IMG/VR virus record: IMGVR_UViG_3300009285_000029
Source of the DNA: a virus
Reading direction: 5' to 3' (one strand)
Length of the DNA: 39,981 nucleotides
Shown: positions 12,385-35,151 of the stretch, piece after piece
Numbering within the stretch: the first letter of the stretch is position 1
How the letters are laid out: each line of letters opens with the position of its first letter
Translations under genes and position numbers: made by a program
The notes under the pieces: model-generated
What the model was told of the DNA's origin: nothing
The model's input: the letters and a program-made list of their open reading frames with translations, nothing else
Database searches by the model: none

Positions 12385-12525
12385 GGGGGGGGGGATTGGT
12401 GATCTCGACGTACACCCAGCCGTTGGCCTCGGCCTCGGCTTGCTGAGGCGCAGGTATGCCAGGGTGAGGGCGGTCACGAGTACGAGGGCAAATACGGCGG
12501 CAAGGGCGAGGGCATTGTGGGTCAT
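12373..12525 (-). CDS. Small single-TM membrane protein (50 aa) with a C10 tract in its 3' end
   Basis: Hand translation: MTHNALALAAVFALVLVTALTLAYLRLSKPRPRPTAGCTSRSPIPPPAAG*. GGAGGG lies upstream, with an ATGA overlap to the pentapeptide-repeat gene. The homopolymer at 12385-12394 encodes IPPP. Confidence 0.5.
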   Translation of the reverse strand: MTHNALALAAVFALVLVTALTLAYLRLSKPRPRPTAGCTSRSPIPPPAAG

Positions 12526-12896
12526 TTTCCCTCCTGGGGGGGCTTATACCCCTCTGGCCACGTGGTGTATTTGTTGTGGCGGGCCTCGCTCAGGTCGGCC
12601 TCGCTCAGGTCGGCCTGGCTCAGGTTGGCCCATCTCAGGTTGGCCCCGCTCAGGTTGGCCCCGCTCAGGTTGGCCCTAATGCGGGCTGGGAGGACTCCAT
12701 TGGCAATCGCCCAGCCCACATACTTTTTGAGCAGGGGATCAGCAAGTAGTTCGTGCCATTTTCCATTGGCCTCCTCCTCTGTCCCCCACAACGGGCCGAT
12801 GTCGAACCCCTTTGGGAATTTCTTCTCGAATTCATCTTTGGCCGGCGAGCAGGGGCCAAAGTTTTCCAGCGTTTTTGGGTTTATGACCTGTTTCAT
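12522..12896 (-). CDS. Pentapeptide-repeat protein (124 aa)
   Basis: C-terminal ANLSGANLSGANLRWANLSQADLSEADLSEA fits the A(D/N)LXX consensus over about 6-7 units. ATG 12896 (MKQVINPK...) is preceded by AGGAGAA. Confidence 0.8.
   Translation of the reverse strand: MKQVINPKTLENFGPCSPAKDEFEKKFPKGFDIGPLWGTEEEANGKWHELLADPLLKKYVGWAIANGVLPARIRANLSGANLSGANLRWANLSQADLSEADLSEARHNKYTTWPEGYKPPQEGK
12582..12680 (-). repeat. 15-bp tandem repeat (about 6.5 copies) encoding the pentapeptide repeats
   Basis: Plus-strand units are ggcctcgctcaggtc x2, ggcctggctcaggtt, ggcccatctcaggtt and ggccccgctcaggtt x2, followed by a degenerate unit. Confidence 0.9.
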
Positions 12897-12901
12897 TTCA
12901 G

Positions 12902-13192
12902 CTATTCTCCTATCGGCCTGGTTCTTGCCCCGCACTCGACGCAGTTGTCCTCGATCGTGAGCATGTGGGCCTCACAGACCGGACACCAGTTTTCGCCGTC
13001 TATTGGTCGCCAAAACCCCAGCGTAAAATGATAGCCCGTTCTGCTGTGTTCGGTAAAAATGTGGACTTCGGCATCATCTTCAAGGTGTGAAATCTTGGGG
13101 TAAATCTTCTCGAAGGCGTGTTCGTACCCGTGTGCTGTGACAGTTTGGGGAGGCGTATTCGTGTTGCCTTCCCTCCAGTAAAAAGTGCGCAT
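12902..13192 (-). CDS. Hypothetical zinc-ribbon protein (96 aa)
   Basis: ATG follows element A copy 2 (AAGGA RBS). Contains CPVCEAHMLTIEDNCVECG. Confidence 0.65.
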   Translation of the reverse strand: MRTFYWREGNTNTPPQTVTAHGYEHAFEKIYPKISHLEDDAEVHIFTEHSRTGYHFTLGFWRPIDGENWCPVCEAHMLTIEDNCVECGARTRPIGE

Positions 13193-15390: not shown

Positions 15391-15609
15391 ATGGCAACCT
15401 GGGCGGACGTTCCACGAACCGAGGCAAAAGCGAAACTGCTCAGCTGCCTAAGCTGTGGAGGAGTGAAACCCGAGGAGCGATTCAAAATCTGTGAGCAATG
15501 CGGCGTCCCCATCTGTCTTGACTGCACCACCAATCCCTGCTGGTATTGCGGAGAAGAACGTCGGGGACGAAGTAGAGCGGATCAAGAAACGGGCCGGGGC
15601 AATACTTAG
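15391..15609 (+). CDS. Cys-rich double zinc-ribbon protein (72 aa)
   Basis: Four CxxC pairs: CLSCGG...CEQCG...CLDC...CWYCG. ATG lies 2 nt after the upstream stop. The 3' end overlaps the longest form of the terminase ORF in another frame. Confidence 0.55.
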   Translation: MATWADVPRTEAKAKLLSCLSCGGVKPEERFKICEQCGVPICLDCTTNPCWYCGEERRGRSRADQETGRGNT

Positions 15610-17275
15610 CTTCTTAGAGGCGAGGGAGGAGAAGGCGCAGGCAAAGGTCTGGAGGGCCGCGTTGCGCGTATTGAATGGAGAGTTGGGGGAAGTGAAGGAG
15701 GAAGAGGTCATACAGGCGTGGCAGGAGGAACTGCTGCCCGCCTTCGTTCAGTTGAACGATAACCCGATGGGGTATTCGGGGTACTACGAGTTGGTGTGGG
15801 GCGAGGAGTGGCCGGAGCACTGCTGGGATTGGGCGAACCTTTATTACGAGGCACACGAGGAGGGGATGTACTCGCTCATCGAAGCCTTTCGAGGCAGCAT
15901 CAAGTCCACGTTCAATTCATTGTTCGTCAGCTTTCGCGTGGGCCATGAACCGGCCAAAATCAACCTTATAATCTCGTCCAGCGACGACAAGGTGAAAGAG
16001 ATCGGGGAACTGATCGCCAACGTGATCAAATACAACAAGGCGTGGCAGCGCATCTTCCCTCACGTGGTGCCGGACGAACAGGGGCATTGGAGCGTGGAGG
16101 CAGGATACAGCGTCTGGGACAATCGAGTGCCTTACCCGGAGTGGACGCAAAAGACGATGGTGGAGGGAGGGCGCGCGCCCACGGTGAAGGTGGCGAGCTA
16201 CAACAGCCAGTACCTGCCGGGGCCGCACCCGACAGGCGTGCTGATGATCGACGACATCCACACCGAAAAGAACTCGGAGTCGCAGCGGGAACTGCTGAGG
16301 GTGAAAAGTGTGGTAACGAGGATCCTCGTGCCTGTGATTGAACCGGAGACCTGGTTCTTGATAAACGGAACGCCCTTCAACTTTGCTGACGTCGTGGCCT
16401 GGGCCAAGATCAACAAGAGATTCAAGAGCATGAGCACGCCGGTGAGGAAAGAGGATGGGACACCGGCGTGGCCGCAGAAGTGGAACGAGGGCGCCATCGA
16501 GAGGCAGAGGGAAACGATGAACGATGACGTGGCCTTCGCACAGATGTACGAACTCAACCTAGAAAAGGCGAAGGGGCAGGTGCTAAAAAAGGTGTGGCTC
16601 GAACCCTACTTCCCCGCGGCCGAGACCAAACCGAAGGACTGGCTCGCCTTTGGCTTTATTGACTACACCTCGACCTCGCGGCCTGATAAGCAACAGTCGG
16701 ATTACTTTTCACTCGCTATCGGATTGCTGCCGCCGAGGTCACGATTTCTCTTGCTCGTGGACGGCATCTACGCCAGGCTGGACCAGGACGACGCCCAGGA
16801 ACTGGCGGTGGCGAAGATACTGGAATACCCGAAGATGATGGTGGTGGGGGTGGAGGCGCTTTTCTCGGGGAAGGAATATCAAAACACGCTGGCCCAGAAC
16901 CAATACCTGCTTTCAGCCGGCATCGTGCCGAGGGCGTGCCGGGGAGGGCCGTGGGCGAAATCGAAGGGCTACCGCTTCGAGAAGATTTTGGCTCCACGCT
17001 TCAAGAGTGGCATGGTCAGGATCACAGACGAGGAGAACGAATATCTGAACGCCCTCAAAAGCGAATGGGTGGGCTGGCAAGGGGACGCGCTGGCCGCGCT
17101 TGGACATGACGACGCCCTCGACACGGCCTTTGGCGCGTTGTGGATGGCAATGCCCTACCTGCCCGTGGACGAGTATTCGATCAACACCGTGGCCGAGACC
17201 TTGAATTTGGAGGCGGGCGGCGGGGAGCAGAAAGTGAAACCTGATGCTATGCTTCAAGCTTATGCGAGGAAATGA
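15491..17275 (+). CDS. terL: Terminase large subunit
   Basis: Walker A-like AFRGSIKST, Walker B-like GVLMIDDIH, coupling motif INGTP, and nuclease-domain acidic motifs FGFIDYTST, VGVEA and GHDDALDTA. The start is uncertain: GTG 15491, or in-frame TTG 15662 (GGAGGG 5 nt upstream), which would avoid the overlap with 15391..15609. Confidence 0.9.
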   Translation: MSNAASPSVLTAPPIPAGIAEKNVGDEVERIKKRAGAILSFLEAREEKAQAKVWRAALRVLNGELGEVKEEEVIQAWQEELLPAFVQLNDNPMGYSGYYELVWGEEWPEHCWDWANLYYEAHEEGMYSLIEAFRGSIKSTFNSLFVSFRVGHEPAKINLIISSSDDKVKEIGELIANVIKYNKAWQRIFPHVVPDEQGHWSVEAGYSVWDNRVPYPEWTQKTMVEGGRAPTVKVASYNSQYLPGPHPTGVLMIDDIHTEKNSESQRELLRVKSVVTRILVPVIEPETWFLINGTPFNFADVVAWAKINKRFKSMSTPVRKEDGTPAWPQKWNEGAIERQRETMNDDVAFAQMYELNLEKAKGQVLKKVWLEPYFPAAETKPKDWLAFGFIDYTSTSRPDKQQSDYFSLAIGLLPPRSRFLLLVDGIYARLDQDDAQELAVAKILEYPKMMVVGVEALFSGKEYQNTLAQNQYLLSAGIVPRACRGGPWAKSKGYRFEKILAPRFKSGMVRITDEENEYLNALKSEWVGWQGDALAALGHDDALDTAFGALWMAMPYLPVDEYSINTVAETLNLEAGGGEQKVKPDAMLQAYARK

Positions 17276-19209
17276 CCATGCCTGAGACCAAAGACTACTA
17301 TCTCGGCCTCATCCGAGAAATGATCGACGATGACAAGGACAGGGACAAACTCGTTCAGAAGGTGGACGAAATCTTCTACATGGATTGGAAGATCGACGAG
17401 GACTTCCGCAAACTGGGAGTGAGAGAAATGATTGACTCCAGTGGCCACGACGTCGTCAACCAGGCCGCTGCCATCTACTCCAAGTCCATGCCGATGATAA
17501 CTATCTCGCCGCTTTCGAGCGCCAAGCTGACGCCGGAGCGGATCAACGACATCGAGACCTGGCTGAGGGCTACGCTCGAACTGGCCTGGATGCGGCAAAA
17601 CAACAACGGCTTACGGTCGCTGGTGCAATCCGTATTCCTGTACGACGAGATCATCACCCAGGTGAACTTTCTGCCCTGGCAGATAGAGGCGTGGAAGAGT
17701 TTTGGGCGTGACGTCCGCTCCATGCAGGAGACCCTGCGCTACGGGAACTTCTCGCTGCCCGTGCTGCATCCGGCTAATGTGCACGCGAGATATTCGGATA
17801 ATATGGCCGAACGCCTCGTAACCGTGAGAGTGGACAAGATCGACAACTTGGTTGCGCGCTACGGGGAAACGCTGATGAAGCCATTGACCGACAGCGTGGG
17901 TTGGCAGAAGAGGCCAGCTAACAATAAGCTGAACGCGGGCATGCGCTATGCCACGCTTTATGATTACATTGACCGTGAGGCGCACGTGATGCTCGCCACG
18001 CCATCGTCTACGTTCTCGGCAGCCAACGTCAACTCCGGCCTGGTGCTGATGAACCAGAAAAGAAAGGAGCCGTTCTTGCCCTATGCATCCAGGATTGGGG
18101 GAGGCCCGCCGATGCGCTCCGGCAAAGTGCAGCGGCTGCCCATGCTTTACCCCATTGTGGAGACGGGCATGTGGGAGGACGTGAACCTGCTCGATTCGCT
18201 CAACTTCTGGGACGCGACGAAGCGCATGGGAGCGCAGAGGTATTGGTACGAGGGCGTCGGCGGCGAGAAAGTCTTCATCAAGTATTTCACCCACGAAGAC
18301 ATTCTACGTATGCCTCCTGGTACTGTGCTTAACGAACTGCCCGTACCCCCGATTGACCAGAACATCGAATACTTGATCTCGAAACTGAGGGCGCGCATGG
18401 AAGCCAGCTCGATGTCCAATGTGCTGCGAGGCTACGAGCCACAATCCGGCGTGGCCTACGCAAGCATCAATCTGGCGGCGGCATCGGCCGTGAAACGGAT
18501 CGGGCCGATGGTGAGGCTGGCGGAGAACGCCATCGCTGACATCTGCCGCGTGATGCTGGAATGGCACGCATTCACCGGCACGCCTCTTTGGATGCCCGGC
18601 ATGGAAGAAGTTATCCTGGCCCAAGACATTCCGGTGCAGACCCTCTACATCGACGTGAAGCTGGCCGAGGAAGACGCGCTGGATAAGACCAGCAAGATGA
18701 ACCAGGCGCTCATGGCTTACCGCGAGGGCCTGGTGGACCGGCGCGGGGCCATCGAACTGAGCGGCGAGACGAACCCGGATAGTGTTGTCAATAAGGTCAG
18801 AAGCGACAGCTTCGAGAACGCGGCGATGGAGGCTGAGGTGGCTTCGTTCGCCGCCAACCAGCAGCTTATCAACCAGATGAAGGCCGGGGGCTTCCCGATC
18901 ATGGCGCAGAGATTGGCGGCGGGGGACCCGGTGGCGATGCAGATATTCCAGATGATGGAGCAGGTGGCGGCGCAGGCGACGCAGCAACCCGAGCTCGCGG
19001 GACAGCAAAATGGGCGAGGGCCTGTGGAACAGGGAACGCCCGCCAACCCAGAGAACGAATTGCAGGATATGAGAGGCGCGATGATGGAGGGCAGGGAGGG
19101 GCCGCTGTTCAACCGCGCCGAAGGCGGGATAACCAGCGAGGGTTCGGATGGCTTGGACACCTTCGAGGGCCGTACCGGAACCGACCGCGCCGGCAATGAA
19201 ATCCTATGA
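17272..19209 (+). CDS. Portal protein
   Basis: 645 aa. ATGA overlap with the terminase stop. Size and position immediately after terL are typical, and the C-terminus is acidic and Gln-rich. Confidence 0.75.
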   Translation: MTMPETKDYYLGLIREMIDDDKDRDKLVQKVDEIFYMDWKIDEDFRKLGVREMIDSSGHDVVNQAAAIYSKSMPMITISPLSSAKLTPERINDIETWLRATLELAWMRQNNNGLRSLVQSVFLYDEIITQVNFLPWQIEAWKSFGRDVRSMQETLRYGNFSLPVLHPANVHARYSDNMAERLVTVRVDKIDNLVARYGETLMKPLTDSVGWQKRPANNKLNAGMRYATLYDYIDREAHVMLATPSSTFSAANVNSGLVLMNQKRKEPFLPYASRIGGGPPMRSGKVQRLPMLYPIVETGMWEDVNLLDSLNFWDATKRMGAQRYWYEGVGGEKVFIKYFTHEDILRMPPGTVLNELPVPPIDQNIEYLISKLRARMEASSMSNVLRGYEPQSGVAYASINLAAASAVKRIGPMVRLAENAIADICRVMLEWHAFTGTPLWMPGMEEVILAQDIPVQTLYIDVKLAEEDALDKTSKMNQALMAYREGLVDRRGAIELSGETNPDSVVNKVRSDSFENAAMEAEVASFAANQQLINQMKAGGFPIMAQRLAAGDPVAMQIFQMMEQVAAQATQQPELAGQQNGRGPVEQGTPANPENELQDMRGAMMEGREGPLFNRAEGGITSEGSDGLDTFEGRTGTDRAGNEIL

Positions 19210-20763: not shown

Positions 20764-23700
20764 ATGGTAAGCTCCTATCAGCAACAGCAGCAAAGAAAGA
20801 TAAAGGGCCTTTACGATGACACGCTTTACGGACAGCGGCTGTCTTTGTCGGGCGCAGCTGGCAGAACGTCCGAAACCCCCACGCTTTCCGCGGCCTCCAA
20901 GGCTAAACTTTCATCTGCGGTTGCCGGGACCGTCTCTCAGCCCAAACGACCTCCTCCTGGCTACGACAAGCTAACCCCGCTCGAACAATCGTTCTCTGAG
21001 ATATTTCCGGGTATTGCTCCCTGGATTTTGCGTGGGACCGGCGCGGTGGGCGGAGGGGTACTTGGCTTTGCCGTGGGAGGCCCGGTTGGGGCTGTCGTGG
21101 GAGGAGCGGCGGGCGCAACATTCATCGAGTCCATTCTGGACACGAAGGTTGGTGATTGGCTATTCAAGGGGTTGGATTACGGGGCAGAAGTTACAGAAAA
21201 AGCCATAGGGACGGCCTACCTCATCGCCAACGACGACCAGTTGGAGGCGCTGAGGGGGACACAAATGAAGGGCACAAGCTCGCTGGCCTGGCTTGACATC
21301 GCTACAGATCCAAAAAAGCGAGCACTTTTCCTTTCGGCCTGGCGAGCCTCCAGCATGTTCTACGAGAGCATCGCCCCGAAGGACGTTGGGGGATTGCTCA
21401 AAGTCAGTCAGGCGCTTGGCGGCTTCGAGCAGTTCTCCCCCTTCGCCTCGGAAGAAGAAAAAGAACAAGTCCGTATAGAGCAGCAGGAGATATGGGGTGA
21501 GTGGGACACGTATTGGGGCGAACAGAAAGAGCACTGGCGGAAGGTGTTTGCCGGTGAACCGCTGCCTGACATCGGCGGCCTGCCGCAGCTTATCGCCATG
21601 CGTGAGCAGATATTCAGCGGGCGCGACCCCGATGAGGTATTGACGGAATACCAGCAATCCCTCGGCATGCTCGCCTTCCGCGGGCAAATGTTCGACAGCC
21701 TGGGCCATATCGTCGCCGATCCCATAAACTTCATTATGCCCAAACTAAAGCCGGTCGAGAAAGGCAAGGCTCTCACCGAATACGTGCTCGCCGCCAGGAA
21801 GGCGCCGCAGGTGACGCAGGCGGTGGATGACATCAAGCGGGCCCAGAAACTCTTCCTCGCCGCCGAGGACGTGGCCGAGAAATCGCGCCTGGCCGATGAC
21901 ATGGTGAGAATTGCCGATAGCCTGGAGACAGCCACCTTCAGCAAGATCGACGAACTCTCGGACATCACCCTGGGGCTAAAGAAAGCGGTGGAGAGCGGCG
22001 AGGGCTTGGACAAAGCGATTGGCAGGCTGGACGACATCATGCGCCGCTTCGACGAGGTGAAGGACGCCTCGCTGATGGAGCGCAAGGTGGCGGCGCTGTT
22101 TGGTGGAGACCCGCTCAACCCCCCGGATTACTACTTCAAGCTCACCAATGCCACAAAGAACATTCCTCTTGGGTCCCGCCTCGTGGGCGGCGTGCTGCGC
22201 TTTTTCACTCTCACCTCCGAATCGAGAGCGCGCATTTTCGTGAACAACATCTCGGACACGCTGCGCATCATCACCGCCGAGGGCAACATTGCAGACCCCA
22301 GGACGCCGTACCTGTGGGTGCAGAATTTCGCCAAAGGCGCGGCAGGGGCATTTGGAGACAGGCTGGGGCATATGTTCATCACCCCCGTGGGCAGGCACGT
22401 GCAGGCGGTTCTCAAAGCCTCGATGACCAAATTTGCCGAGGCCCTCACCGCCTACGACGCCCTCAAGACGCAGCGGGAAATGGCTTACACCATCGCCCGC
22501 TTGCTGGACGACAGCCCCGGCAACATTGTCAAGATGCTGCAAGCGGGCGAGTCCAACGCCGTGTTCCAGAGGCTGACGAAACTGGTGGGCACGCAGCCGG
22601 GCGTGAAGCTGCTGGACGACATCGGAGCGGGGCTGGTCAAGCAGCAAGACTTGGTGAAGCTGGGCGAGATACTGCGCTCGACAAAGAACAACATCATTCC
22701 CTGGACGCCAGAACTGCTGCGCGGCAAGATGCTCTCGGACATGCTGGAAGTGGCGGCAAAACTGGCGGAGACGCAGTTTGGGGTGAAAGAGATAGGCATA
22801 TTCAGGAAAGCAACCGAGGCCATGAAGTCGGTCGAGAGCCTGCTGCTGCTGGGCTTGAACGGGCTTTACCCGGTCAACAACTTCTTCAACGGCGAACTGA
22901 CCATGATCGCCCGCGGACTGTTCAACATGATGACCACCGATCAGGCACTGAAATATTGGGATGAGGCAGTTGGCTTCCGGCCCTCCAATCTGATGAAAGG
23001 CTTCGGTATCTCTGGCGAGGAAGCCATAGCAGGGGTATCGGACATCGAAAAGGCTGCCATGAAAATCCTGGATGACGCACGCTGGGGAGATAACCAGAAG
23101 TTCCTCAAGACCGTCAGGGATGCGGCCAGGAAACCCAAGCTGGCTCGATCTATAGCGGCAATAACGGAGTCGAGGCAACGCCTGCGCGCCACCACCTCCG
23201 CACACATGAAAGTCTTTCCGCAGATCAAGAAGGGGATGATCTCGGGGATGGACGTGGCTGAACCGGGTTTGCGGGAGGCGCTGAACATCGGCGACCCCAA
23301 TCTGGCGCGGGCCTTCGAGGAGGCCGTGCAGTCCTCGCTTTCCGTGAACGACATCGGCAAACTCCGCCAGACGAAGAACCTGAACTGGAACGTGGAGAGC
23401 ATCATCCGGCAGGCGGGAGAGCAGTTGGGGATGCCGACCGAGACCCTGCGAATGTTCCTGGGCGAGGAGGTGCTGGAGGGATTGCGGCGTGTGGTGGACG
23501 ACATCAAGTTGAACCCCACCGCCGAACGCATTTCCTCCGGCATCAGCGACATGAAGCGCACCTTTCAGGATGGACTGGAGGCGGCTTACGTCAGGGAACT
23601 CGAATACCGCGCCGCCGAGTACGCGGCCAAGATCGAGACCGAAGGCATTCACGGCGTGGCGATGGTGTATGGCGAGGTGGCCGATTCCATCTTCGCCCGC

Positions 23701-26700
23701 CAGGTGGCGCACACCATGCGCCTCGACGAGCAGGTGCCGAAAATCCTGGACATCGAGAACGCGGCCCTGCGCAACAGCGCGTGGAAGGGCATCCTGGGGG
23801 ACAGCGACATCGCCTGGCGTAGAACCTGGCAATTCCAGGAAGCGGCGTTCAAGGGCATTGCCGATGGCTTGAAGGGGCGCGGGGCAAAGCTCACTCAGGA
23901 CTTCACCGACGGTTTTCGCTCGCTGAAAAAGACCACCGGCGATTTCATCACCAAGCGCAACAAACTGTGGGACGACTTCTTCGAGGACATCGTAGCCAAA
24001 AAATTCCCCGATGACTTTTCGAGGTTTGCCCGCGGGGACGAGATCCGCGAGATTTTGACGAAGGAATACCAGAACCTCATCGAGACAACCGAGCGCGCCT
24101 ACCTGAAGATGGACACGGTGGTGGTGAACAGCTTCCGTGACCCGCGCCTGCGCTCGCAGGTGAGCATGTGGCGCAGCACCATCCGGCGCATGCGCATCGC
24201 AGACATGGAGAGCATGGCCGATTTCCGCGGCGTGCTTGCGGGCGTTCCGAGAGCGGAGCAGGCGGCGATGTGGAGGGACTACAACTTCGCACGCCGCCGC
24301 GTGTGGGCCAACATCAACCTGCTCGAAAACGCGGGCCGGCGCATGGTGGCCGGAGACCCCGAGGCGCTGCGCATGTTCTCACAGGTTCAGGACTTGCCTC
24401 TGTTTCAGGCCAGGGCTGCCGAAGCCGTGGAGCAGGCCGAGAGATTGTCCCTGCGTAAGCTTGACCCCGTGCAGCAGAGCGACATCTTCCGGCAGGCCGA
24501 ACTCGGGTTTGCCGATACGCCTGTCTCCGAACTGCCGCCCGATTTGAGAACAGCCTTGCAATTCCAGATCGAAGAAATGATGAGTGATATGACCATCGCC
24601 AAGCCAGGGCGGAGGATCATGGATTACGACGTGGCTGGACGGGGTGGCTTGTCGGAGGTAAGTGGCATCTCGTCTAGCTACCCGTATTGGTACAGCGAAC
24701 TCAACCCCTACCTGCGATTGGCGGACGGGACTGTGCTGCGCGGCAAGGCCGCCGTGGAAGAGGCGCTGAACATACTCGTGCGCGGCGAGGGAGATACGGG
24801 CTACTCGATATTCGGGGAGCTGCGCAGGATCGCCTTCCGCGAACTGGCGGACGGCGGGTTGCCCGAGGATTTCTGGAAGGTGATGGACGAGATTGGTGAG
24901 GAGGGCGTTTCCCTGGTGCCGCTTTCTAGGGCGGGGGAAATGGATAACTTTGTTGATGCCATAAAACAAGCTGATATTCAGATTGCTCGTAAGGGCATTG
25001 AGAGTTTGAAGGGAGAAGAATTTCGTCGAGCCTCCGAATTACTATTAGAACATGGCTTACCGAGTGAAAATGAACGCCTCAATCAACTAATCAACAATCT
25101 TAGTGAAACTCTTGCGAAGCTCAACAAGGCTGGGGCAGACCCCCAACTACTTAAATTAGCCTCACAACAGATTTCTGATATTCGTAGCCATTTTCAAACA
25201 GTTTTGGATCGTGTTCAACGCAGAAAATTTTTGGGGAAGGCGACAGACATGGGAGCGCGCAAGCCACCCGTGCAGCCTATCAAAGACACAGAACCTTTCA
25301 TGGCCGATTTCGACAGCCTGGTGGGGCGCATCGAGGCGCGGCAGGCGGGAATAGACGAGGTGTGGTTCGAGTTCACCGCGCCGATGGTGGACGAGGTCGA
25401 GCGCCGCCTACTGGCAATGCTGGACGAGAAGCCAACCAGCATTGCAAAATTGCCCGCCGCTACACAAGCGCAGCTTGACCGCTACCTCAACCGCGCCACC
25501 GGAGAACTGCGCAACGCCCAACTCGTTTCCTCCAGGTTGTCCGAGAAGATGGCGGATGGCGTGATGCTCAACTACAGCAGGCAATACGGCTTCGACGTGG
25601 CGATGGGCTATGCCGCTCCCTTCCCCTACTGGTGGACACACTCGATTGCCTCCTGGCTGGTCAATTCGGTGGACAGACCGGCGATGCTTTCCACCTATTT
25701 CAAGATGGAAAGGTTTCTCAACGAGGTCGTGGGAGACAAAGAGAATTTCCCCAGCCGCCTGCGGGGGCGGGTAAAGATCAGCCTGCCCTTCGTACCCGAG
25801 GAATTCGGGGAAATCTGGTTGGACCCGGGGCGCATGTTCGGCCTGCCGTTTGAGCAATTCTTCGACCCCTACGTGAACCTGATGCGGGAGAACGAGAGCA
25901 TGCAGTACCGCATCGGGGTCACGCTGGGGCAGATGGTCGAGTCCGGTGCAATCACCCAGCAGCAATACGCCAACGCACTATCTGGGAATGACCCCGCGCT
26001 CTACGACCGCGCCAAAGGCATCGTACTCGACCAGGACAGCACGCAGCAATACGACGTCATGGACTTTATGAGCATGAGCACCAGCGCGCACCTGCCCTAT
26101 CAGATCGCCTGGAACATCCTCAAAGGCAGGCCGGAGCGCATTGGCCCATTGCCGTTTACGCGCACGCTAAAAGGGGTGGCCGGACTGTTGGGAATCAAGG
26201 TGGGAGCGGAGGGAGTGGACAAATGGGGCAACATGCGCGAGAGCATCGGACTGCCATACTTTGACGAGTTTGAACGTTACCGTGTGCGCCGCGAATTGTC
26301 CAACATGACCGCCGAGGGCATCATTGACTCCGACACCGCCATACGCGCCATGATCGAGGAGGAGGGCGAGTGGTATCTGTATGCGCTCGACCGCGTGAAC
26401 AAGCAGCAGGGCTTCTCCACGCTGCTGCGCATGGTGGGCTTGCCCACGCTTCCTTACCCTGAAGGTGAGAAGGCATTGAGGGCGAAGAAGGACGAGTTCG
26501 AGGCCGCCATGCGAGCCTGGGATGCGGGCAACGTGGATGCCGCCACAACCTTCTTCGATGAGAACCCGGACTACCTCACGCGGCTGGCAATCGGGAAAGA
26601 ACCCGAGGAGCAGATGCAGAGGTTCACCGTTGACCTGCTGTGGGATGCCTATAATAATCTCTCATCGGTGGACAAGAGGATTGCCCGCGAGGCCCTGGGC

Positions 26701-27492
26701 GAGGAGTTCCAGACCAAGTTCCTCGATAAGGATACGCGCAACACCGACTCCATCCCCGTCGAGAAACTGTCGGGCTGGCTGAAGATGCTGGGAGGACAGC
26801 CTATTGGCAGCCTGGGCGAGGACGCCGTCCCCATCGAACTCGCGCCGCCTGAGATTGCGAACCTCACGCAGGCTTTCTACGACCGCCGCAGCCTTGATTT
26901 CCCCGACTGGTTCCAATTGCAGCAGGATTACTTCGCCCTCCCCGAAGGCGAGAAGAGGGACGAATTCCTACAGGAAAACCCGGCCCTGAAAGATTATTGG
27001 GCGTGGCGCGACGATTTCATGCGCCGCAACCCGAAGACGATTCCCTATCTCAACGACGACCCGGATAAGGAGATACGCGACCTCACGGTTGGCTCGATAT
27101 GGGACATCTATATGAACCTCTCCTCGGTGGACAAACGCAGCGTGAGGGAGGCTTTCGGGGATGAGTTCGTGAGCAAGTTCCTCGACCGCGACACCAGGAA
27201 CTACAACGCCATAGACATCGAAACCCTCTCCGGTTGGTTGGAGGAGCTTGGCGGGCAGTCACTCACCGGCGCTTCCGCGGAATCGCTTGCGCCCTCCCTC
27301 TCCACCGAGGAAATCCTGTCTCGCCTCTACTTTGTCGGAGGCTATGAACTGGTCAATCAGGTCACGGATTACGTCCAGGGAGGCAGGCTTGCGCCCCAGG
27401 TTTTGGAGGCTTTGCAGGAGATTGCGGAGGCCCTCGGGATTGACATCGACAGCTTGCTAGAAGAATTGAGCATGGTGCTGGTATTGCAATGA
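20764..27492 (+). CDS. Giant protein (2,242 aa) of unknown function, candidate head-internal/ejection (cargo) protein
   Basis: Single uninterrupted ORF whose ATG abuts the upstream TAG. It has a glycine-zipper hydrophobic segment (aa about 92-121) and a duplicated C-terminal module. It sits between the portal and scaffold genes. Confidence 0.85.
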   Translation: MVSSYQQQQQRKIKGLYDDTLYGQRLSLSGAAGRTSETPTLSAASKAKLSSAVAGTVSQPKRPPPGYDKLTPLEQSFSEIFPGIAPWILRGTGAVGGGVLGFAVGGPVGAVVGGAAGATFIESILDTKVGDWLFKGLDYGAEVTEKAIGTAYLIANDDQLEALRGTQMKGTSSLAWLDIATDPKKRALFLSAWRASSMFYESIAPKDVGGLLKVSQALGGFEQFSPFASEEEKEQVRIEQQEIWGEWDTYWGEQKEHWRKVFAGEPLPDIGGLPQLIAMREQIFSGRDPDEVLTEYQQSLGMLAFRGQMFDSLGHIVADPINFIMPKLKPVEKGKALTEYVLAARKAPQVTQAVDDIKRAQKLFLAAEDVAEKSRLADDMVRIADSLETATFSKIDELSDITLGLKKAVESGEGLDKAIGRLDDIMRRFDEVKDASLMERKVAALFGGDPLNPPDYYFKLTNATKNIPLGSRLVGGVLRFFTLTSESRARIFVNNISDTLRIITAEGNIADPRTPYLWVQNFAKGAAGAFGDRLGHMFITPVGRHVQAVLKASMTKFAEALTAYDALKTQREMAYTIARLLDDSPGNIVKMLQAGESNAVFQRLTKLVGTQPGVKLLDDIGAGLVKQQDLVKLGEILRSTKNNIIPWTPELLRGKMLSDMLEVAAKLAETQFGVKEIGIFRKATEAMKSVESLLLLGLNGLYPVNNFFNGELTMIARGLFNMMTTDQALKYWDEAVGFRPSNLMKGFGISGEEAIAGVSDIEKAAMKILDDARWGDNQKFLKTVRDAARKPKLARSIAAITESRQRLRATTSAHMKVFPQIKKGMISGMDVAEPGLREALNIGDPNLARAFEEAVQSSLSVNDIGKLRQTKNLNWNVESIIRQAGEQLGMPTETLRMFLGEEVLEGLRRVVDDIKLNPTAERISSGISDMKRTFQDGLEAAYVRELEYRAAEYAAKIETEGIHGVAMVYGEVADSIFARQVAHTMRLDEQVPKILDIENAALRNSAWKGILGDSDIAWRRTWQFQEAAFKGIADGLKGRGAKLTQDFTDGFRSLKKTTGDFITKRNKLWDDFFEDIVAKKFPDDFSRFARGDEIREILTKEYQNLIETTERAYLKMDTVVVNSFRDPRLRSQVSMWRSTIRRMRIADMESMADFRGVLAGVPRAEQAAMWRDYNFARRRVWANINLLENAGRRMVAGDPEALRMFSQVQDLPLFQARAAEAVEQAERLSLRKLDPVQQSDIFRQAELGFADTPVSELPPDLRTALQFQIEEMMSDMTIAKPGRRIMDYDVAGRGGLSEVSGISSSYPYWYSELNPYLRLADGTVLRGKAAVEEALNILVRGEGDTGYSIFGELRRIAFRELADGGLPEDFWKVMDEIGEEGVSLVPLSRAGEMDNFVDAIKQADIQIARKGIESLKGEEFRRASELLLEHGLPSENERLNQLINNLSETLAKLNKAGADPQLLKLASQQISDIRSHFQTVLDRVQRRKFLGKATDMGARKPPVQPIKDTEPFMADFDSLVGRIEARQAGIDEVWFEFTAPMVDEVERRLLAMLDEKPTSIAKLPAATQAQLDRYLNRATGELRNAQLVSSRLSEKMADGVMLNYSRQYGFDVAMGYAAPFPYWWTHSIASWLVNSVDRPAMLSTYFKMERFLNEVVGDKENFPSRLRGRVKISLPFVPEEFGEIWLDPGRMFGLPFEQFFDPYVNLMRENESMQYRIGVTLGQMVESGAITQQQYANALSGNDPALYDRAKGIVLDQDSTQQYDVMDFMSMSTSAHLPYQIAWNILKGRPERIGPLPFTRTLKGVAGLLGIKVGAEGVDKWGNMRESIGLPYFDEFERYRVRRELSNMTAEGIIDSDTAIRAMIEEEGEWYLYALDRVNKQQGFSTLLRMVGLPTLPYPEGEKALRAKKDEFEAAMRAWDAGNVDAATTFFDENPDYLTRLAIGKEPEEQMQRFTVDLLWDAYNNLSSVDKRIAREALGEEFQTKFLDKDTRNTDSIPVEKLSGWLKMLGGQPIGSLGEDAVPIELAPPEIANLTQAFYDRRSLDFPDWFQLQQDYFALPEGEKRDEFLQENPALKDYWAWRDDFMRRNPKTIPYLNDDPDKEIRDLTVGSIWDIYMNLSSVDKRSVREAFGDEFVSKFLDRDTRNYNAIDIETLSGWLEELGGQSLTGASAESLAPSLSTEEILSRLYFVGGYELVNQVTDYVQGGRLAPQVLEALQEIAEALGIDIDSLLEELSMVLVLQ

Positions 27493-27540: not shown

Positions 27541-28209
27541 ATGAGCGAGCAAACGGAGAGCGCCGCCAGGCCTGGTTCGGAGGGAACGCCAACCCCTCAG
27601 TCTCAGGAGCAGGGCGGGACCAGCTCGACTTCGCAGCCGCTTACAGAGGATCGTTTGACCGAAATCCTCGAGGCGCAAGTTGAGAAGCTGGTGCAGAAAC
27701 ACAGCAATAAAGAAACCAGCAGGATCAAGAAAGACGTCGAACGTCTTGACCAGCGCCTCAATGAGGTATCGGTCATCGAGCAGTACGACAAGCTGATCGC
27801 CGAAGGTTTGAAGCCTGAGCAGGCGAAGCGCGAGATCATGCGCGACGCCGAGATTGCGAGGCTAAAAGGCGGACACGAACAGCCTGACGTTGCTGAATCC
27901 GACTGGATTGACAGTGGCATGTTGACCGGCGAGGATGCCCTGAAAGTGGCGAGTTCTGTCCTCTCCAAACTGCCGGAAGAAACCCGTGCGAAGGTGGCCG
28001 CCGAGATCAAAAAAGGCGTCTTCAAAGACGCAAGCGAGGTCATTCCTTTTGCGGGGCAGAAGCTGGCAGAGGTCTTGACCAAGCCCAGCCCCGACGCGGC
28101 CAGCATCGGCCAGAATCCGGGAGGCGGTGGAGGCGAGACCAACCAAATCGAGAACATCACTGATCCGCATACGCTGGGCAAGATGGCCTTCTCTCAGGAG
28201 AAAAAATAG
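27541..28209 (+). CDS. Scaffolding protein
   Basis: 222 aa, acidic, with helical/coiled-coil-looking sequence (EILEAQVEKLVQKHSNKETSRIKKDVERLDQRLNE). AGGAGA RBS. Lies immediately upstream of the capsid gene. Confidence 0.65.
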   Translation: MSEQTESAARPGSEGTPTPQSQEQGGTSSTSQPLTEDRLTEILEAQVEKLVQKHSNKETSRIKKDVERLDQRLNEVSVIEQYDKLIAEGLKPEQAKREIMRDAEIARLKGGHEQPDVAESDWIDSGMLTGEDALKVASSVLSKLPEETRAKVAAEIKKGVFKDASEVIPFAGQKLAEVLTKPSPDAASIGQNPGGGGGETNQIENITDPHTLGKMAFSQEKK

Positions 28210-28232: not shown

Positions 28233-29213
28233 ATGCCATTCAGTTTGGCAGACTACGCAAAAATCCAAACTGATCCAAAGCGCAAGATGGTGATCACCAA
28301 CATGCTGCGCGAGTCCGCAATTATGGAACTCATGCAGTATGAGAACACCGACACCCTCTCCACGGTACAGGTGCGCTGGAACACGCTGCCATCGGCGGCC
28401 TTCCGCAAGCTGGGAGCCACATACACAGCGAGTGAAGGTTCGTACGACGAGGTGTGGGAAAGCCTGTATGCCCTGGGCGGCCTGATCGAAATCGACCGCG
28501 TGTACGAGAAAGTGCGCAATCCCATCGTCGATCCCCGCGTTGACCAGGTCTTGCAAAAGACCAAGAGCATCATGCTCACGTTCAACGACTACTTCATCAA
28601 CGGCGACCTGGCCGTGGATGAGGACGGGTTCGAGGGGTTGAAGAAACGCATCTCGAACATGCCCAGCCGCCAGACCGTGAGCGCCTCTGGATCAACCGAC
28701 ATCCTCGACCCGACCGCCTCGGCAGCCAACGCCCGCAAGTTCCTGGATAAGTGGGAGGAAGCGGCCTACGCCGCCAACGACAACGACTTCCAGATGATCA
28801 TCTGCAACGAGAAGATGATGTGGGGCTATGGCCGCGTGCTCCGCTACCTGGGAGCCAGTGGTGGCCCTCTGTTCGATACCGCAACGGATTTCTTCGAGCG
28901 CGAGGTGCTCACCTACAAAGGCGCGAGGATCGTGGACATCGGCCTCAAGAAAGACCAGACCACCGAGATCATCACACTGACCGAAGACCCCGGCGACGGG
29001 GGCAACGACGCCACCAGCGTCTACTTCGTCCCCGTCAATCTGGAGGACGGCGTGTTCGGAATCCAGCTTGCGGAGCCGGACATCGAGGAGGGATACAAGG
29101 ACGGCCTGGTGCTTCGGCAGATCCTCGTGGACTGGTTCGTTGGGTTGGCGACGTTCGGAAGCTATGGCCCCACTCGGCTGAAGAACATCGAAACCCCCGC
29201 CAACTGGACGTAA
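28233..29213 (+). CDS. Major capsid protein
   Basis: 326 aa with an AAGGAG RBS. The N-terminus SLADYAKIQTDPKRKMVITNMLRESAIMELMQYEN...LPSAAFRKLGATYTASEG resembles a capsid family I recall (lpf..i.g..y.re..lp.a.fr). Its position after the scaffold gene supports the call. Confidence 0.8.
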   Translation: MPFSLADYAKIQTDPKRKMVITNMLRESAIMELMQYENTDTLSTVQVRWNTLPSAAFRKLGATYTASEGSYDEVWESLYALGGLIEIDRVYEKVRNPIVDPRVDQVLQKTKSIMLTFNDYFINGDLAVDEDGFEGLKKRISNMPSRQTVSASGSTDILDPTASAANARKFLDKWEEAAYAANDNDFQMIICNEKMMWGYGRVLRYLGASGGPLFDTATDFFEREVLTYKGARIVDIGLKKDQTTEIITLTEDPGDGGNDATSVYFVPVNLEDGVFGIQLAEPDIEEGYKDGLVLRQILVDWFVGLATFGSYGPTRLKNIETPANWT

Positions 29214-31622: not shown

Positions 31623-32489
31623 GTGGCGACGCTTTTCAACGTTGTTCACAACGTCCTCTTGGAACTTGGGGAAGCCATCGAGGGAAAAGCCACGGGCGGC
31701 TCGACTTCGACCATCGTGGACACCGGCGCGACCGGCAACAAGGAATTTGCCAGCAAGGAGGACGATTACTACAACGGCGGCACGGCGGGCATCCTCTACG
31801 ACGCTGGCGGCGCTGCCGCTGCGCCCGAGGGAGAATACTCCGAGGTATCCGACTTCGACCAGGACAGCAAGACCATCACGGTAAGCCCATTACTCACCAT
31901 TGCAGTGGCGGCCAACGACCGCTACTTCGTGGCAAGTGACCGCTTTGCTTTGCAGGAGATCATCGCCCAGGCAAATAAGGCGCGGCAGGAATACAAGATC
32001 GTCAAGACCGACACATCCTTGAGCACAAGCACCAACACGAAAAACTACACCATCCCTACTGGAGTTGTTGATATTCGGCAGATTGTTTTGCAAGACACGA
32101 GCGGGGGAGGCAAGACGCCCTGGCCTTATTGGGAGGAGACGCCCACAGAAATCATTTTCCGGCAATACCCGCCAGCCAGCAGGACTATCGAACTCATTCA
32201 CGTGGCGAACCAGGCTGCAATGTATAACGCCAGCGACACGCTTGACGACCAGATAGCCCTAGAACTTTTCTCCGTGGACGTGGCGCTCAGACTGCTGCGA
32301 AGCCGCAAGCAGCGCGGGCAGCAGAACATCTACGAGGACCTGATCGAGGACTTGCAAATCCGCTATGATAGACTGCGGTTGGAATTCGAGAAGTACGTGC
32401 TCGAACAGCCTCAGCGTGATCCCAGCCGCATGATGCTGCCCGAACGAGGCGGGCAACTGCCTCCCGACCCGCACAACATTCGCTGGTGA
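31623..32489 (+). CDS. Tail/neck structural protein, adaptor or tail-tubular-A-like by position (288 aa)
   Basis: GTG start 3 nt after the upstream stop. Precedes the 886-aa tail protein, as in the gp11/gp12 arrangement of T7-like podoviruses. This is a synteny argument only. Confidence 0.5.
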   Translation: MATLFNVVHNVLLELGEAIEGKATGGSTSTIVDTGATGNKEFASKEDDYYNGGTAGILYDAGGAAAAPEGEYSEVSDFDQDSKTITVSPLLTIAVAANDRYFVASDRFALQEIIAQANKARQEYKIVKTDTSLSTSTNTKNYTIPTGVVDIRQIVLQDTSGGGKTPWPYWEETPTEIIFRQYPPASRTIELIHVANQAAMYNASDTLDDQIALELFSVDVALRLLRSRKQRGQQNIYEDLIEDLQIRYDRLRLEFEKYVLEQPQRDPSRMMLPERGGQLPPDPHNIRW

Positions 32490-32490
32490 C

Positions 32491-35151
32491 ATGCCTCTTT
32501 CCCTCAACGCCCAAGGACACATCAGGCTTTCAGACGGCGACAGCTCGCTGTGGTTCAACTACATAAACTCGAGGGCGCGGATCGACCCGCTTGCCATTTC
32601 CATTTCCCCCATCCCTGAAACGGCAGTACAAATCACCTCAGGCCAGAGCCGCTACGACGACCGCGAACCTCCCTTCGGCGCGACGGCCAGGGATGAATTC
32701 GCCGGTGGACGGGCGCTCAAATACGCCGAGGATGACCGCACCCGCTTCGCGGACAGCTTCCGCCTGAACACCTGGCAGGGGGGCAAACTCTTCCCCGCGC
32801 CGCAGGAGCACTACTGCACGGGCTACCGGAACGGCAATCAGCTTATGCCGGGCAACGTGAACTGGAAGCCCATTCACGACACCAGCCCGCACACGCGCTT
32901 CTTCGCCATGCCTTTCACGCCCTCGGCCAACTACACCGCCGAGCAAATCTGGCTGTGGCTCAGGTTCAGAGGAGACCCCAGCGACCTGACCGTGGCTCTG
33001 AGGGCGGACAGCGCCGGAAGCCCAACGGGGGCGGACATCGACGCCGAGACGCTGGCGGCCAGCAGCTACGAAGAACTGGTGAGCGTGCTGCACATTTTCA
33101 CCACGCTTTCCGAGGCGCTCGTAAGTGGTACAAAATACTGGATCGTCATCACCGCAGACGCCAACGACAGCCCCGAGAACTGCTGGGAAGTAGGGGTGGA
33201 CACCACGGGTACGACGGCCAAGACCTCGCCGGACGGCAGCGCTTGGAGCACATCGGCCTACGACATCTACTACCGCGTGCTGGACGCGGACGACGACTTC
33301 GTAGCGCAGTTCTTCAAGACCATTGGAGGCTTCTACTTCGCCACGAAGCCGGACGATGACGGCGCGGGCAAGCTGTATCGCAACGGCTATCAGGGCGTGG
33401 CCGACGCCAACACCGGCGCGCTGACCAAGCTCAAGGACAGCACGCAAACGGGCTGGGCGGCGGACGCCATCCTGGGCGCGATAGCCGAGCTTTACTTTGG
33501 GCCCGGCTCGACCGAAGACCCGCCGTGGCGCGAGATCACCGCCAGCGCGTCGGGGGAGGCTACCGTTGATCCGGCTTGGAAGATCGAGCATACGACGGGC
33601 ACGATCTACAACATCCTGGGGACGGACGTTTTCGTGGAGGTGAGTACTACGGGTTTGGCCAAGCCTGTGACCTCGGTACTGCCGGTGATGAACTTCGTCT
33701 ACATGGCACAGGGGGACGAGACCGTCATCAGGAAGGCGCGGTTTTATAACAACGCCGGGACTTACACCGAGGCTTTCGATGCCGAAACCGCCAAGGCGCT
33801 CTTCTTAGCCAACCAACTCGATACCTATGGGAACTTGGAGAAAGTTGTACGCATACGCAATCTGAATGACAGCGGAGTCCAGAATCCGGCAGTCAGTTAC
33901 GCTGATGTGACCGACACTTTTGCCACCGACCTCAGCTTCGGAACAGACATCAAGATCGGGCACAGCGATCCCCGCATCACCGGCTTCCAGTTCTGGGGGG
34001 TCCCGGAGCAGCTCATCGTTTTCAAAGAGAACCGGCCATATACCATCGTAGACGAGAAGGCCAAGCCGATGGCGATCCCGGAACTGGACGTGGTAGCCAG
34101 CCCGAAGAACGGGCGGGCAAGCGCGGCCTGGAAGACCTATCTCTGGTTCTCGCTCTTGAACGACCTGGCGCGCTACTACAGCGACAACCTGGATCAGCGC
34201 GGGCCGATGGGAGGAGAGGGCCTGCCCAGCGACCGACAGGGGCCAATCGTGAAACTGCTGGGCTACCCCGAACTGCTGATTGCGGCAGTGGACGGGGGAG
34301 TGGACAACTACTCCTCGATACTCATCTACAATCAGGGGGGCTGGCACGAACTCTACCGCGCCCCGCAGCCGGGTCTGCGCATAAGGAATTTGTACTACCA
34401 AGCCATTCCGGGTCCTACACCGGACAGACTGTGGATTTCGCAGGGCAGCGATGTGCTCTATCTGCACATGCCCTCCGAGACCCTGAACATGCTGGAGGAC
34501 GCCGAGCTTCGCTTCACCCACGAAAGCCACCTCATCACCGGAAAGTTCTCGACCAACCTATTCGACGTTCCTAAGTTGTGGAACGAGATGAAACTGTACT
34601 CCGAGAGCCTGAGCAGCGGAGCACAGGAGGTCTTCCTGGACTACCGCCTGGATGAGGACACGGATTGGGAGAACATCGAGCAGCCCTTCGACGAAGGCCC
34701 GATACAAGACAAATTCATCGGCGAGGCGGGCAGGACGATTTCGAGACAGATCCAATTTCGGCTGCGCCTGCTGACCAACGACGCCAGCGTTGCGCCGGTG
34801 GTGCGCGCCTACGTGATGGAGAGCATTGGCAAGAGTCCGGTGAAACACCTGTTGTCCTTCACCGGCCAACTCGTGACCGACCGCATGGACTTGCAGGGAG
34901 ACTTCGACATCCAATCCATCGCCGAGGAGCTTGCTACTCTGAAGAGGTGGGAGAGCAACAAGGGACGCTGGGTGGTGGTGAGCAAGGCGCAAAACCCGCT
35001 GGTGGACGAGAAGCTGTACATCATAGACGGCGTGGCCTACCAGCCCATGCTGCTCGAACCCAAGAGCGGGGACACGGATGTGAGCCAGAGACCGGAGAGG
35101 GAGGGCTACTACGTGCAATTAACCCTGATCGAGGTGGGCGATGCCCCCTAG
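32491..35151 (+). CDS. Large tail structural protein, nozzle or tail-tubular-B-like by size and position (886 aa)
   Basis: ATG 1 nt after the upstream stop. It is the largest protein of the tail module. No family motif was recognised with certainty. Confidence 0.55.
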   Translation: MPLSLNAQGHIRLSDGDSSLWFNYINSRARIDPLAISISPIPETAVQITSGQSRYDDREPPFGATARDEFAGGRALKYAEDDRTRFADSFRLNTWQGGKLFPAPQEHYCTGYRNGNQLMPGNVNWKPIHDTSPHTRFFAMPFTPSANYTAEQIWLWLRFRGDPSDLTVALRADSAGSPTGADIDAETLAASSYEELVSVLHIFTTLSEALVSGTKYWIVITADANDSPENCWEVGVDTTGTTAKTSPDGSAWSTSAYDIYYRVLDADDDFVAQFFKTIGGFYFATKPDDDGAGKLYRNGYQGVADANTGALTKLKDSTQTGWAADAILGAIAELYFGPGSTEDPPWREITASASGEATVDPAWKIEHTTGTIYNILGTDVFVEVSTTGLAKPVTSVLPVMNFVYMAQGDETVIRKARFYNNAGTYTEAFDAETAKALFLANQLDTYGNLEKVVRIRNLNDSGVQNPAVSYADVTDTFATDLSFGTDIKIGHSDPRITGFQFWGVPEQLIVFKENRPYTIVDEKAKPMAIPELDVVASPKNGRASAAWKTYLWFSLLNDLARYYSDNLDQRGPMGGEGLPSDRQGPIVKLLGYPELLIAAVDGGVDNYSSILIYNQGGWHELYRAPQPGLRIRNLYYQAIPGPTPDRLWISQGSDVLYLHMPSETLNMLEDAELRFTHESHLITGKFSTNLFDVPKLWNEMKLYSESLSSGAQEVFLDYRLDEDTDWENIEQPFDEGPIQDKFIGEAGRTISRQIQFRLRLLTNDASVAPVVRAYVMESIGKSPVKHLLSFTGQLVTDRMDLQGDFDIQSIAEELATLKRWESNKGRWVVVSKAQNPLVDEKLYIIDGVAYQPMLLEPKSGDTDVSQRPEREGYYVQLTLIEVGDAP

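Follow-up and report, generated by a model that had tools for sequence, protein, structure and literature searches.

The viral DNA considered here, a stretch of 39,981 nucleotides (nt) held as IMG/VR record IMGVR_UViG_3300009285_000029 (the window, by which we mean the whole of this stretch), contains at 20764-27492 on the plus strand a giant, uninterrupted open reading frame (ORF), whose 6,729 nt specify a protein of 2,242 amino acids (aa) and occupy 16.8% of the window. Judged by analogy with other phage systems, its product is probably a virion-internal pilot protein, packaged in the head and ejected from it, and a cargo-poor form of a family of the phage-type polyvalent kind. The ATG of the ORF abuts the TAG of an upstream 452-aa ORF (ggTAGATGg), with a G-rich stretch resembling a ribosome-binding site just 5' of it. 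The protein has no cysteine and 0.5% histidine. Its features are listed below, with the conserved regions defined by hidden Markov models (HMMs) on 154 family representatives and model quality given as the predicted local distance difference test score (pLDDT).

aa 6-10, nt 20779-20793, plus strand: Gln run QQQQQ, within the variable N-terminal tail
aa 65-74, nt 20956-20985, plus strand: PGYDKLTPLE motif (relatives' consensus PNYDKLT..E), a partially conserved element near the N-terminus
aa 93-121, nt 21040-21126, plus strand: glycine zipper GAVGGGVLGFAVGGPVGAVVGGAAGATFI, immediately preceding the conserved N-terminal region
aa ~130-1180, nt 21151-24303, plus strand: conserved N-terminal region N1-N3, matched by HMMs in 102-126 of 154 representatives, where N1, N2 and N3 invariably follow one another in this sequence
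aa ~1181-1530 (~350 aa), nt 24304-25353, plus strand: variable central slot, with no recognisable domain
aa 1304-1312, nt 24673-24699, plus strand: SSYPYWYSE, inside the central slot, not conserved
aa 1531-1900, nt 25354-26463, plus strand: C1, the best conserved part
aa 1618-1626, plus strand: APFPYWWTH, inside C1, conserved in relatives
aa 1901-2110, nt 26464-27093, plus strand: C2, helical repeat units, pLDDT 80-90
aa 1959-2012, nt 26638-26799, plus strand: duplicated module, copy 1, inside C2
aa 2112-2165, nt 27097-27258, plus strand: duplicated module, copy 2, an insertion that the 7 closest relatives lack
nt 27259-27489, plus strand: C3 end piece, conserved, at the very end of the protein

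The Gln run, the glycine zipper, both PYW motifs and the duplicated C-terminal module had all been read from the sequence by a first-pass annotation of this DNA, and all are present; for the zipper the aa range stands, while the nt start given there lay about 27 nt too early, the correct one being 21040. The zipper is the only strongly hydrophobic internal segment of the protein, the sole other segment above threshold being the extreme C-terminus (aa 2223-2241). The two module copies share 57% identity over 69 aa (pairwise E 8e-30), and since their DNA is, by eye, only about two-thirds identical, the module looks like an old in-frame duplication rather than an assembly repeat. Unusual length is the sole pointer to a chimeric assembly, or to several genes having been fused, as the source of the entire ORF, an explanation to which we assign practically no probability. 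Six independent groundwater assemblies, made from several samples and, to judge by their contig names, with different assemblers, agree on the ORF to within 0-1 nt, and the identical protein occurs on at least 16 contigs; the look-up behind this count finds identical proteins by design, and the repeated recovery still counts against misassembly. Because the same 6,729-nt ORF stands in all six assemblies, and full-length collinear homologues with 26-30% identity occur on many other phage contigs, the giant ORF is no chimera, and its earlier description as unbroken holds with no sign of misassembly.

The family to which the protein belongs came to light through exhaustive HMM search, the word-indexed protein search having yielded few relatives for so long and low-complexity a query. 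A profile of the C-terminal ~700 aa retrieves 1,657 representatives (clusters at 50% identity) at E<=1e-3 and 696 at E<=1e-30, so that the profile search proposed in the first-pass annotation, once seeded on this region, returned a large family. In the 154 sequences examined, the C-terminal domain lies at the end of the protein with a median of 2 residues after it, and complete members range from about 1,700 to 5,488 aa. Collinear relatives of 1,715-2,104 aa with 26-30% identity are found in IMG/VR contigs and a protein collection, and the GenBank relative, a metagenome-assembled "Podoviridae sp." from Manatee Spring, shares the gene order and codes for a hypothetical protein of 2,156 aa. Bcep22 gp75, considered as a possible member, received no support, the Manatee Spring genome being the sole GenBank phage that matched. 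Family members also occur on contigs binned into metagenome-assembled genomes (MAGs) of candidate division WWE3, Planctomycetota and Anaerolineaceae (L016, L017, L018, L019), where mis-binning is possible. One Anaerolineaceae contig of 238 kb has an ORF of at least 4,023 aa reaching the start of the locus, with genes of scaffold size and capsid-like type coming after it; an Anaerolineaceae contig (that of L019) is a candidate prophage, which might offer a route to a host.

Region HMMs built from successive parts of the window protein and run on the 154 representatives recover a fixed order: a variable N-terminal tail, N1-N2-N3, a variable slot, C1, C2 in varying number and C3. The architecture is thus in three parts, with conserved N- and C-terminal regions flanking the slot. 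The N1-N3 region includes the motif FGVK...ESL..L.LNP.YP..N..NNE.TM..RG. In C1 the block LNYSR..FD...G...PFPYWWTHS (nt 25567-25644; family form LNYSR..FD...G...PF.FWTT.S) is the most conserved of the family and houses the second PYW motif; the first-pass annotation gave both PYW motifs equal standing, and only this one is kept in relatives. The C2 sub-module is present two to five times in many members, so the duplication in the window protein is one case of a variable-copy repeat and, real as it is, needs recasting as such. Towards the N-terminus conservation is patchier: the PGYDKLTPLE-type motif is matched by a loose regular expression in 20 of 97 full-length members, and the glycine zipper is a minority feature (10/97 members by hydropathy, 32/124 by a Gly-rich filter), absent from the 7 closest relatives and seen again, similarly placed, in the consensus of 14 large members. 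The slot is very variable in size. One member (P0003) is, by eye, almost wholly gapped across the middle of the slot. In another (P0152) the gap between N3 and C1 spans ~3,500 aa. An HMM of the central region (M-region) matches 60 of the 154 representatives, part of the centre being semi-conserved.

In the larger relatives, Pfam recognises a range of effector domains. One member of 4,752 aa (P0103) contains a Strawberry-notch (Sbno)/SNF2-type helicase together with a ddrB-ParB domain, and a second (P0107) contains an SNF2 helicase. Among 14 members of 3,180-4,080 aa, ddrB-ParB occurs in six and ART-PolyVal in five, with PBECR5, RadC-JAB or GGDEF in others, and among 18 members of 2,400-3,100 aa an SLT domain occurs in three, with GGDEF, RadC, SAM lyase or DUF3293 in others. 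Where their positions were mapped, these domains lie between N3 and C1, namely ddrB-ParB at 1450-1583 in P0113, ART-PolyVal at 2542-2747 in P0126 and helicase plus ParB at 2546-3708 in P0103, and an SLT domain is a C-terminal add-on in P0092. ART-PolyVal, ddrB-ParB and PBECR are signature domains of polyvalent proteins, DdrB-ParB being listed among the domains restricted to the phage type, and for such proteins the prediction is packaging in the capsid and injection along with the DNA (Iyer et al. 2017, PMC5512222). In an alignment of the 14 large members (A7), the centre has a consensus HExxH block (..ST..HE..H....DL...) followed by AEE.FARAFE.YLA.G.AP; this block resembles zincin metallopeptidases, is not called by Pfam and has no counterpart in the window protein. 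On sequence grounds, it may represent the protease for self-processing that one would expect a polyvalent protein to have.

The window protein itself appears to be the cargo-poor form of this build, a near-minimal framework whose ~350-aa slot has no recognisable domain. The suggestion in the first-pass annotation that a protein of this size might carry an undescribed activity lacks support and is its weakest part, the slot of ~350 aa, with no recognisable domain, comparing with up to ~3,500 aa of enzymes in relatives. A related alternative is that the slot or C1 houses an enzymatic activity which has escaped recognition, the conserved regions being catalytic instead of those of a carrier. C1 does possess invariant D, N, Y, R, W, T, S and H/P positions (LNYSR..FD...G...PF.FWTT.S, SPHAP..WA.N), the centre is semi-conserved in the 60 of 154 representatives just mentioned, and several uncharacterised polyvalent domains may be enzymatic (Iyer et al. 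2017, PMC5512222). Against this, the sequence has no match in Pfam, NCBIfam or PDB, and Foldseek finds none for the C-terminal model; that model shows helical repeats throughout and nothing that is obviously a catalytic fold; HExxH is missing from the protein, which has just 0.5% His; and the known enzymes of relatives stand as insertions with the conserved regions on either side, suggesting that the latter act as a carrier. An enzymatic function for the window protein therefore seems unlikely to us.

The searches against known families behind this judgement can be summarised as follows. With a cut-off of E<=1, Pfam gives chance-level matches (ApoLp-III, InvH, DUF456), and NCBIfam gives none. 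PDB sequence searches were empty with the single protein, with a 25-sequence profile of the C-terminal domain and with an 8-sequence full-length profile. The protein has no HExxH motif, and MuF or metallopeptidase domains are matched by Pfam neither in it (E<=1) nor in 37 other members (E<=0.001-0.01); across these 38 members, neither the N-terminal nor the C-terminal conserved region has a counterpart in Pfam, be it LPD, MuF or any other family. The first-pass statement that no polymerase, transglycosylase or peptidase signature is present agrees with Pfam, which finds none of these domains, and of the families to which it thought full-length homology might emerge (MuF, T7 gp16, the N4 virion RNA polymerase (vRNAP) or a tape measure) none was found. 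A megablast search with the late region also returned no match. AlphaFold models were built for two parts of the protein. For aa 1043-2242, with 5 sequences, the pLDDT is 45 and only the helical content is usable; for aa 1500-2242 (743 aa), with 25 sequences, the pLDDT averages 71 and reaches 80-90 in the stretch aa ~1840-2160, and the model consists of helical hairpins and repeats. Both are all-alpha, which bears out the helical-looking body read from the sequence. Of the Foldseek searches that had been proposed on AlphaFold models, the one on the C-terminal 743 aa was run and gave nothing significant against PDB or BFVD (best E 1.1 and 0.085, respectively, with TM-scores <0.13); the top non-significant PDB matches include designed helical repeat proteins.

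The one PHROGs match of the giant protein is a weak one to a tape measure family (phrog_167, E 5e-6, aa 349-1076), and weak, non-significant BFVD Foldseek matches also include tape measures, raising the question of whether the protein could be a tail tape measure or another tail protein. The phrog_167 match is probably compositional, because both proteins are helical and of low complexity. The gene lies upstream of the scaffold-sized and capsid genes, and so away from the site of a tape measure, as the first-pass annotation had noted. No tail tube, sheath or chaperone family was matched among the late ORFs searched, most of which match nothing, and the only GenBank relative is labelled a podovirus, with adaptor-like and nozzle-like genes conserved alongside the giant gene. 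In tape measures each residue accounts for about 0.15 nm of tail length, and at this value the family range of 1,700-5,488 aa would call for tails of 250-820 nm. On gene position and family size range we reject a tape measure, and any tail-protein role is highly improbable.

The near-total lack of cysteine extends across the family. Of the long representatives, 108 of 124 have no Cys at all and 121 of 124 have at most two, and all 154 representatives together contain 23 Cys in 323,915 residues; even the enzyme-bearing central regions have 0.01% Cys. Ejected or presumably ejected proteins of other phages behave in the same way: T7 gp15 and gp16 (0 Cys in 747 and 1,318 aa), N4 gp50, gp51 and gp52 (0 in 3,500, 644 and 150 aa) and phi24B gp47 (2 in 2,807 aa). 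For the non-ejected proteins of these phages that were checked, the Cys content is 0.5-2.2%, and the T7 tail proteins gp11-gp12 and internal protein gp13 contain Cys. By analogy, this scarcity is the strongest single indirect argument for ejection of the family, and we regard it as suggestive. It could reflect passage in an extended or unfolded state through a channel of ~3-4 nm and an oxidising periplasm, where disulfides would trap the protein. As a simple sequence marker, near-total Cys lack could help find injected proteins in metagenomes.

The genes around the giant ORF place it in the head module:

15491-17275, plus strand: terminase large subunit (TerL; phrog_38, E 2e-51), next to the giant gene in relatives
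17272-19209, plus strand: 645-aa presumed portal, so named from position and size only, overlapping the TerL stop codon
19405-20763, plus strand: 452-aa ORF with 0 Cys and a Gly/Tyr-rich C-terminus, whose TAG abuts the giant ORF ATG
27541-28209, plus strand: 222-aa presumed scaffold, so named from position only, relatives having a 220-250-aa ORF at the same place
28233-29213, plus strand: major capsid protein (phrog_212, E 5e-40; Pfam GP7, E 1.4e-6)
31623-35151, plus strand: 288-aa adaptor-like and 886-aa nozzle-like tail genes (weak SU10_adaptor match; BLAST synteny)

In relatives from GenBank, IMG/VR and MAGs, the order is TerL, a portal-sized gene of ~600-650 aa, one or two small non-homologous ORFs and the giant gene, followed 3' by an ORF of ~220-250 aa and the capsid gene, with adaptor-like and nozzle-like homologues downstream; the latter two accompany the giant gene even in distant relatives. 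The synteny comparison with metagenomic relatives that the first-pass annotation had called for thus finds the head-module position of the giant gene conserved. Its placing of the gene between portal and scaffold holds as regards the module; the 452-aa ORF intervenes, and the portal and scaffold labels are positional only. The presumed portal keeps its synteny in 5 relatives and has no portal match in PHROGs, Pfam, PDB (by single sequence or profile) or by hhalign against the phi24B portal, and the presumed scaffold has no family match in PHROGs, Pfam or NCBIfam. The capsid gene type differs among relatives: in comparisons that also took in L001-L008, the window capsid has BLAST similarity only in L018 and L019, and the ORFs at the capsid position vary in length between about 320 and 414 aa. 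The head module looks mosaic, with TerL, portal-sized, giant, adaptor-like and nozzle-like genes kept and the capsid gene not.

A location with the presumed portal on one side and the genes for scaffold and capsid on the other, together with a long, helical and charged sequence of the kind seen in scaffolding and core proteins, would also suit an internal head component that is not ejected, such as a core protein, an accessory scaffold or a DNA organiser, either retained or removed at maturation. A separate scaffold-sized gene exists, however, at 27541-28209. Moreover, the effectors of the relatives (ART, ParB, helicases, nucleases, SAM lyase and SLT) make sense only if delivered to the host, and the near-total Cys lack fits ejected proteins, the T7 proteins gp11-gp13 having Cys. 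We accordingly rate a purely structural role in the head as decidedly unlikely.

Several further observations concern the neighbouring genes. The 452-aa ORF has no family match. Its C-terminus is a long Gly/Tyr-rich run (GGGGGGYGGGGGGGGYGGGG...), and since the ORF is 452, 454 or 456 aa long among otherwise near-identical assemblies, this run may be length-polymorphic. By eye its N-terminal part is LysM-like, which Pfam does not confirm; its positional counterpart in MW202608 is annotated "lysin motif", the two proteins having no BLAST homology. The nozzle-like protein (32491-35151, plus strand) has an NCBIfam match to "choice-of-anchor R" (E 4.9e-9, aa 133-256), and its gene is the best conserved late gene after the giant gene across distant relatives, with <=42% identity. 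Downstream of it the window has no unassigned ORF >500 aa and hence no other obvious candidate for an ejection protein. A late 146-aa ORF at 35618-36058 (plus strand) belongs to a widespread phage family for which PHROGs gives no function (phrog_644, E 5.5e-37). A 227-aa ORF at 6463-7146 (plus strand), far from the end of the late operon, matches tail-fibre PHROGs (phrog_24159, E 2e-13), a hint that the genome is circular or terminally redundant, that the window shows it in permuted form and that the late operon crosses the window ends. A gene for an O/DnaD-like replication initiator was identified. No RNA or DNA polymerase family was matched among the larger early-region ORFs and the late-region ORFs searched, and there is hence no sign of the phage needing a virion polymerase. 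Finally, a small minus-strand ORF of the early region, at 12522-12935, appears from approximate coordinate mapping to correspond to a 124-aa gene with a precomputed Pfam Pentapeptide assignment (PF00805) on the identical contigs L010, L014 and L015, and the families that it matches in PHROGs have no assigned function. DNA mimicry occurs in some pentapeptide-repeat proteins, and by analogy an anti-defence role for this ORF is conceivable.

Taking the effector domains of the homologues, the head-module synteny and the Cys lack together as indirect evidence, we return to the proposal that the giant ORF specifies a packaged and ejected carrier protein. It would enter the procapsid as the head is assembled and would later pass out in extended form through the portal and the short tail, ahead of or with the DNA. 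It may then help the short tail bridge the cell envelope and escort the DNA, and the glycine zipper may insert in a membrane. The carrier would consist of a helical N-terminal region of ~1,000 aa and a C-terminal helical-repeat region of ~700 aa flanking the variable slot. In larger relatives, the slot holds host-directed enzymes, such as an ADP-ribosyltransferase, a ParB-like domain and helicases, a few members adding a C-terminal lytic transglycosylase. The core of the first-pass interpretation, a head-packaged ejection or cargo protein, is thus supported by these indirect lines. Its "membrane-inserting" qualifier fared worse, the zipper being confined to a minority of members.

A number of points weigh against this proposal. 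Because the zipper is missing from most relatives, membrane insertion would not be a conserved mechanism. There is no detectable homology to any proven ejection protein, and Foldseek with the C-terminal model gives nothing significant. The family has no cultured member: tblastn with the window protein and the C-terminal domain of a distant member against 50,697 GenBank phage records hits one metagenome-assembled genome (five records). Cys absence is not specific, several short late proteins of the window phage also having 0 Cys. The window protein itself has no recognised effector and so is not "polyvalent" by definition. Lastly, the giant gene lies in the head module, whereas the T7 ejection genes and the gene for phi24B gp47 come after the tail genes. 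The ejection genes of P22 also come after the tail genes.

Packaged and injected giant phage proteins are already known as a concept; they form part of a first-strike toolkit of phages that is poorly understood, the best-studied cases being N4 vRNAP and T7 gp14-16, with phi24B gp47 supported by proteomics only. What appears to be new here is a very large family with no cultured member, unmatched in Pfam, PHROGs and NCBIfam save for the one weak and probably compositional PHROG match, together with its carrier-and-slot build, its head-module position with no MuF detected and its Cys-free signature. In the literature we found no earlier description of the family, only general papers on polyvalent and ejection proteins. 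The family comprises at least 1,657 clusters at 50% identity, and its fixed framework of two parts around a swappable cargo slot helps separate the parts that deliver from the payload. A bolder idea, which we put forward as a tentative and rather doubtful possibility, is that the N- and C-terminal regions form a self-contained, single-chain injection device, providing the trans-envelope path and holding swappable enzyme cargo in the central slot. If so, one chain would replace the three-protein ejectosome of T7, P22 and N4 as well as the MuF anchor of classical polyvalent proteins, and the family would be a natural plug-and-play platform for protein delivery in an uncultured phage lineage having relatives in Anaerolineaceae, Planctomycetota and candidate-phylum WWE3 MAGs, with the window protein as its minimal form. 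Should a carrier role be confirmed, the framework might serve to bring proteins of choice into bacterial cells.

Among known systems, the polyvalent proteins offer the broadest parallel. Shared with them, and with phi24B gp47, are the giant size, a location among the virion and packaging genes of a terminase-portal phage, and, in the case of gp47, the near absence of Cys. Homologues of the window protein carry ART-PolyVal, ddrB-ParB, PBECR5, RadC, helicase and SLT domains, and so combine two or more domains of disparate activity; the N- and C-terminal regions are common to it and to carriers of hallmark domains (P0113, P0126, P0103 and others). Unlike classical polyvalent proteins, the window protein has no recognised effector, MuF, portal-fusion, metallopeptidase or LPD domain, and lacking a recognised effector it is best described as a homologue of polyvalent proteins and not as one itself. 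Genes for MuF/SPP1 gp7 proteins lie just downstream of the portal gene, a position similar to that of the giant gene. The family differs from them in that no Phage_Mu_F match is found, either in the window protein (E<=1) or in 37 other members (E<=0.001-0.01). In polyvalent proteins predicted to be packaged and injected, MuF domains are fused to effectors (Iyer et al. 2017, PMC5512222).

A comparison with individual ejected proteins by hhalign, using an 8-sequence family profile, gives probabilities of 0.6% for phi24B gp47, 0.6% for N4 gp50 and 0.2% each for T7 gp16 and gp15, with limited sensitivity for the two T7 templates, which are single sequences. Because all these values are below 1%, the giant family appears to be an analogue, and not a detectable homologue, of gp47, gp50, gp16 and gp15. 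T7 gp15 and gp16 are alpha-helical, and gp16 has an N-terminal lytic transglycosylase. Like the giant protein they are Cys-free, and an SLT domain recurs in 3 of the 18 mid-size relatives; unlike it, they belong to a set of three proteins encoded after the tail genes, and the window protein has no SLT domain. Once ejected, gp15 and gp16 form a trans-envelope conduit (PMC13434306). N4 gp50 (3,500 aa) is packaged and ejected as a loosely folded protein likened to "beads on a string", with a membrane-spanning N-terminal domain, a central enzyme and a C-terminal domain of large size (PMC13434306). It shares the lack of Cys with the window protein, which differs in having no RNA polymerase domain or motifs by Pfam, and N4 has the separate conduit proteins gp51 and gp52. 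The polyvalent phi24B gp47 (2,811 aa) is found in virions by proteomics, is invisible in cryo-electron microscopy and has been proposed to be an ejection protein forming a trans-periplasmic conduit (bioRxiv 10.64898/2026.04.10.717836). Its gene follows the tail genes and closes the late region, in contrast to the head-module location of the window gene. Reasoning by analogy, we would regard phi24B gp47 as the closest conceptual counterpart of the giant protein and N4 gp50, with its enzyme held between N- and C-terminal domains, as the closest architectural one.

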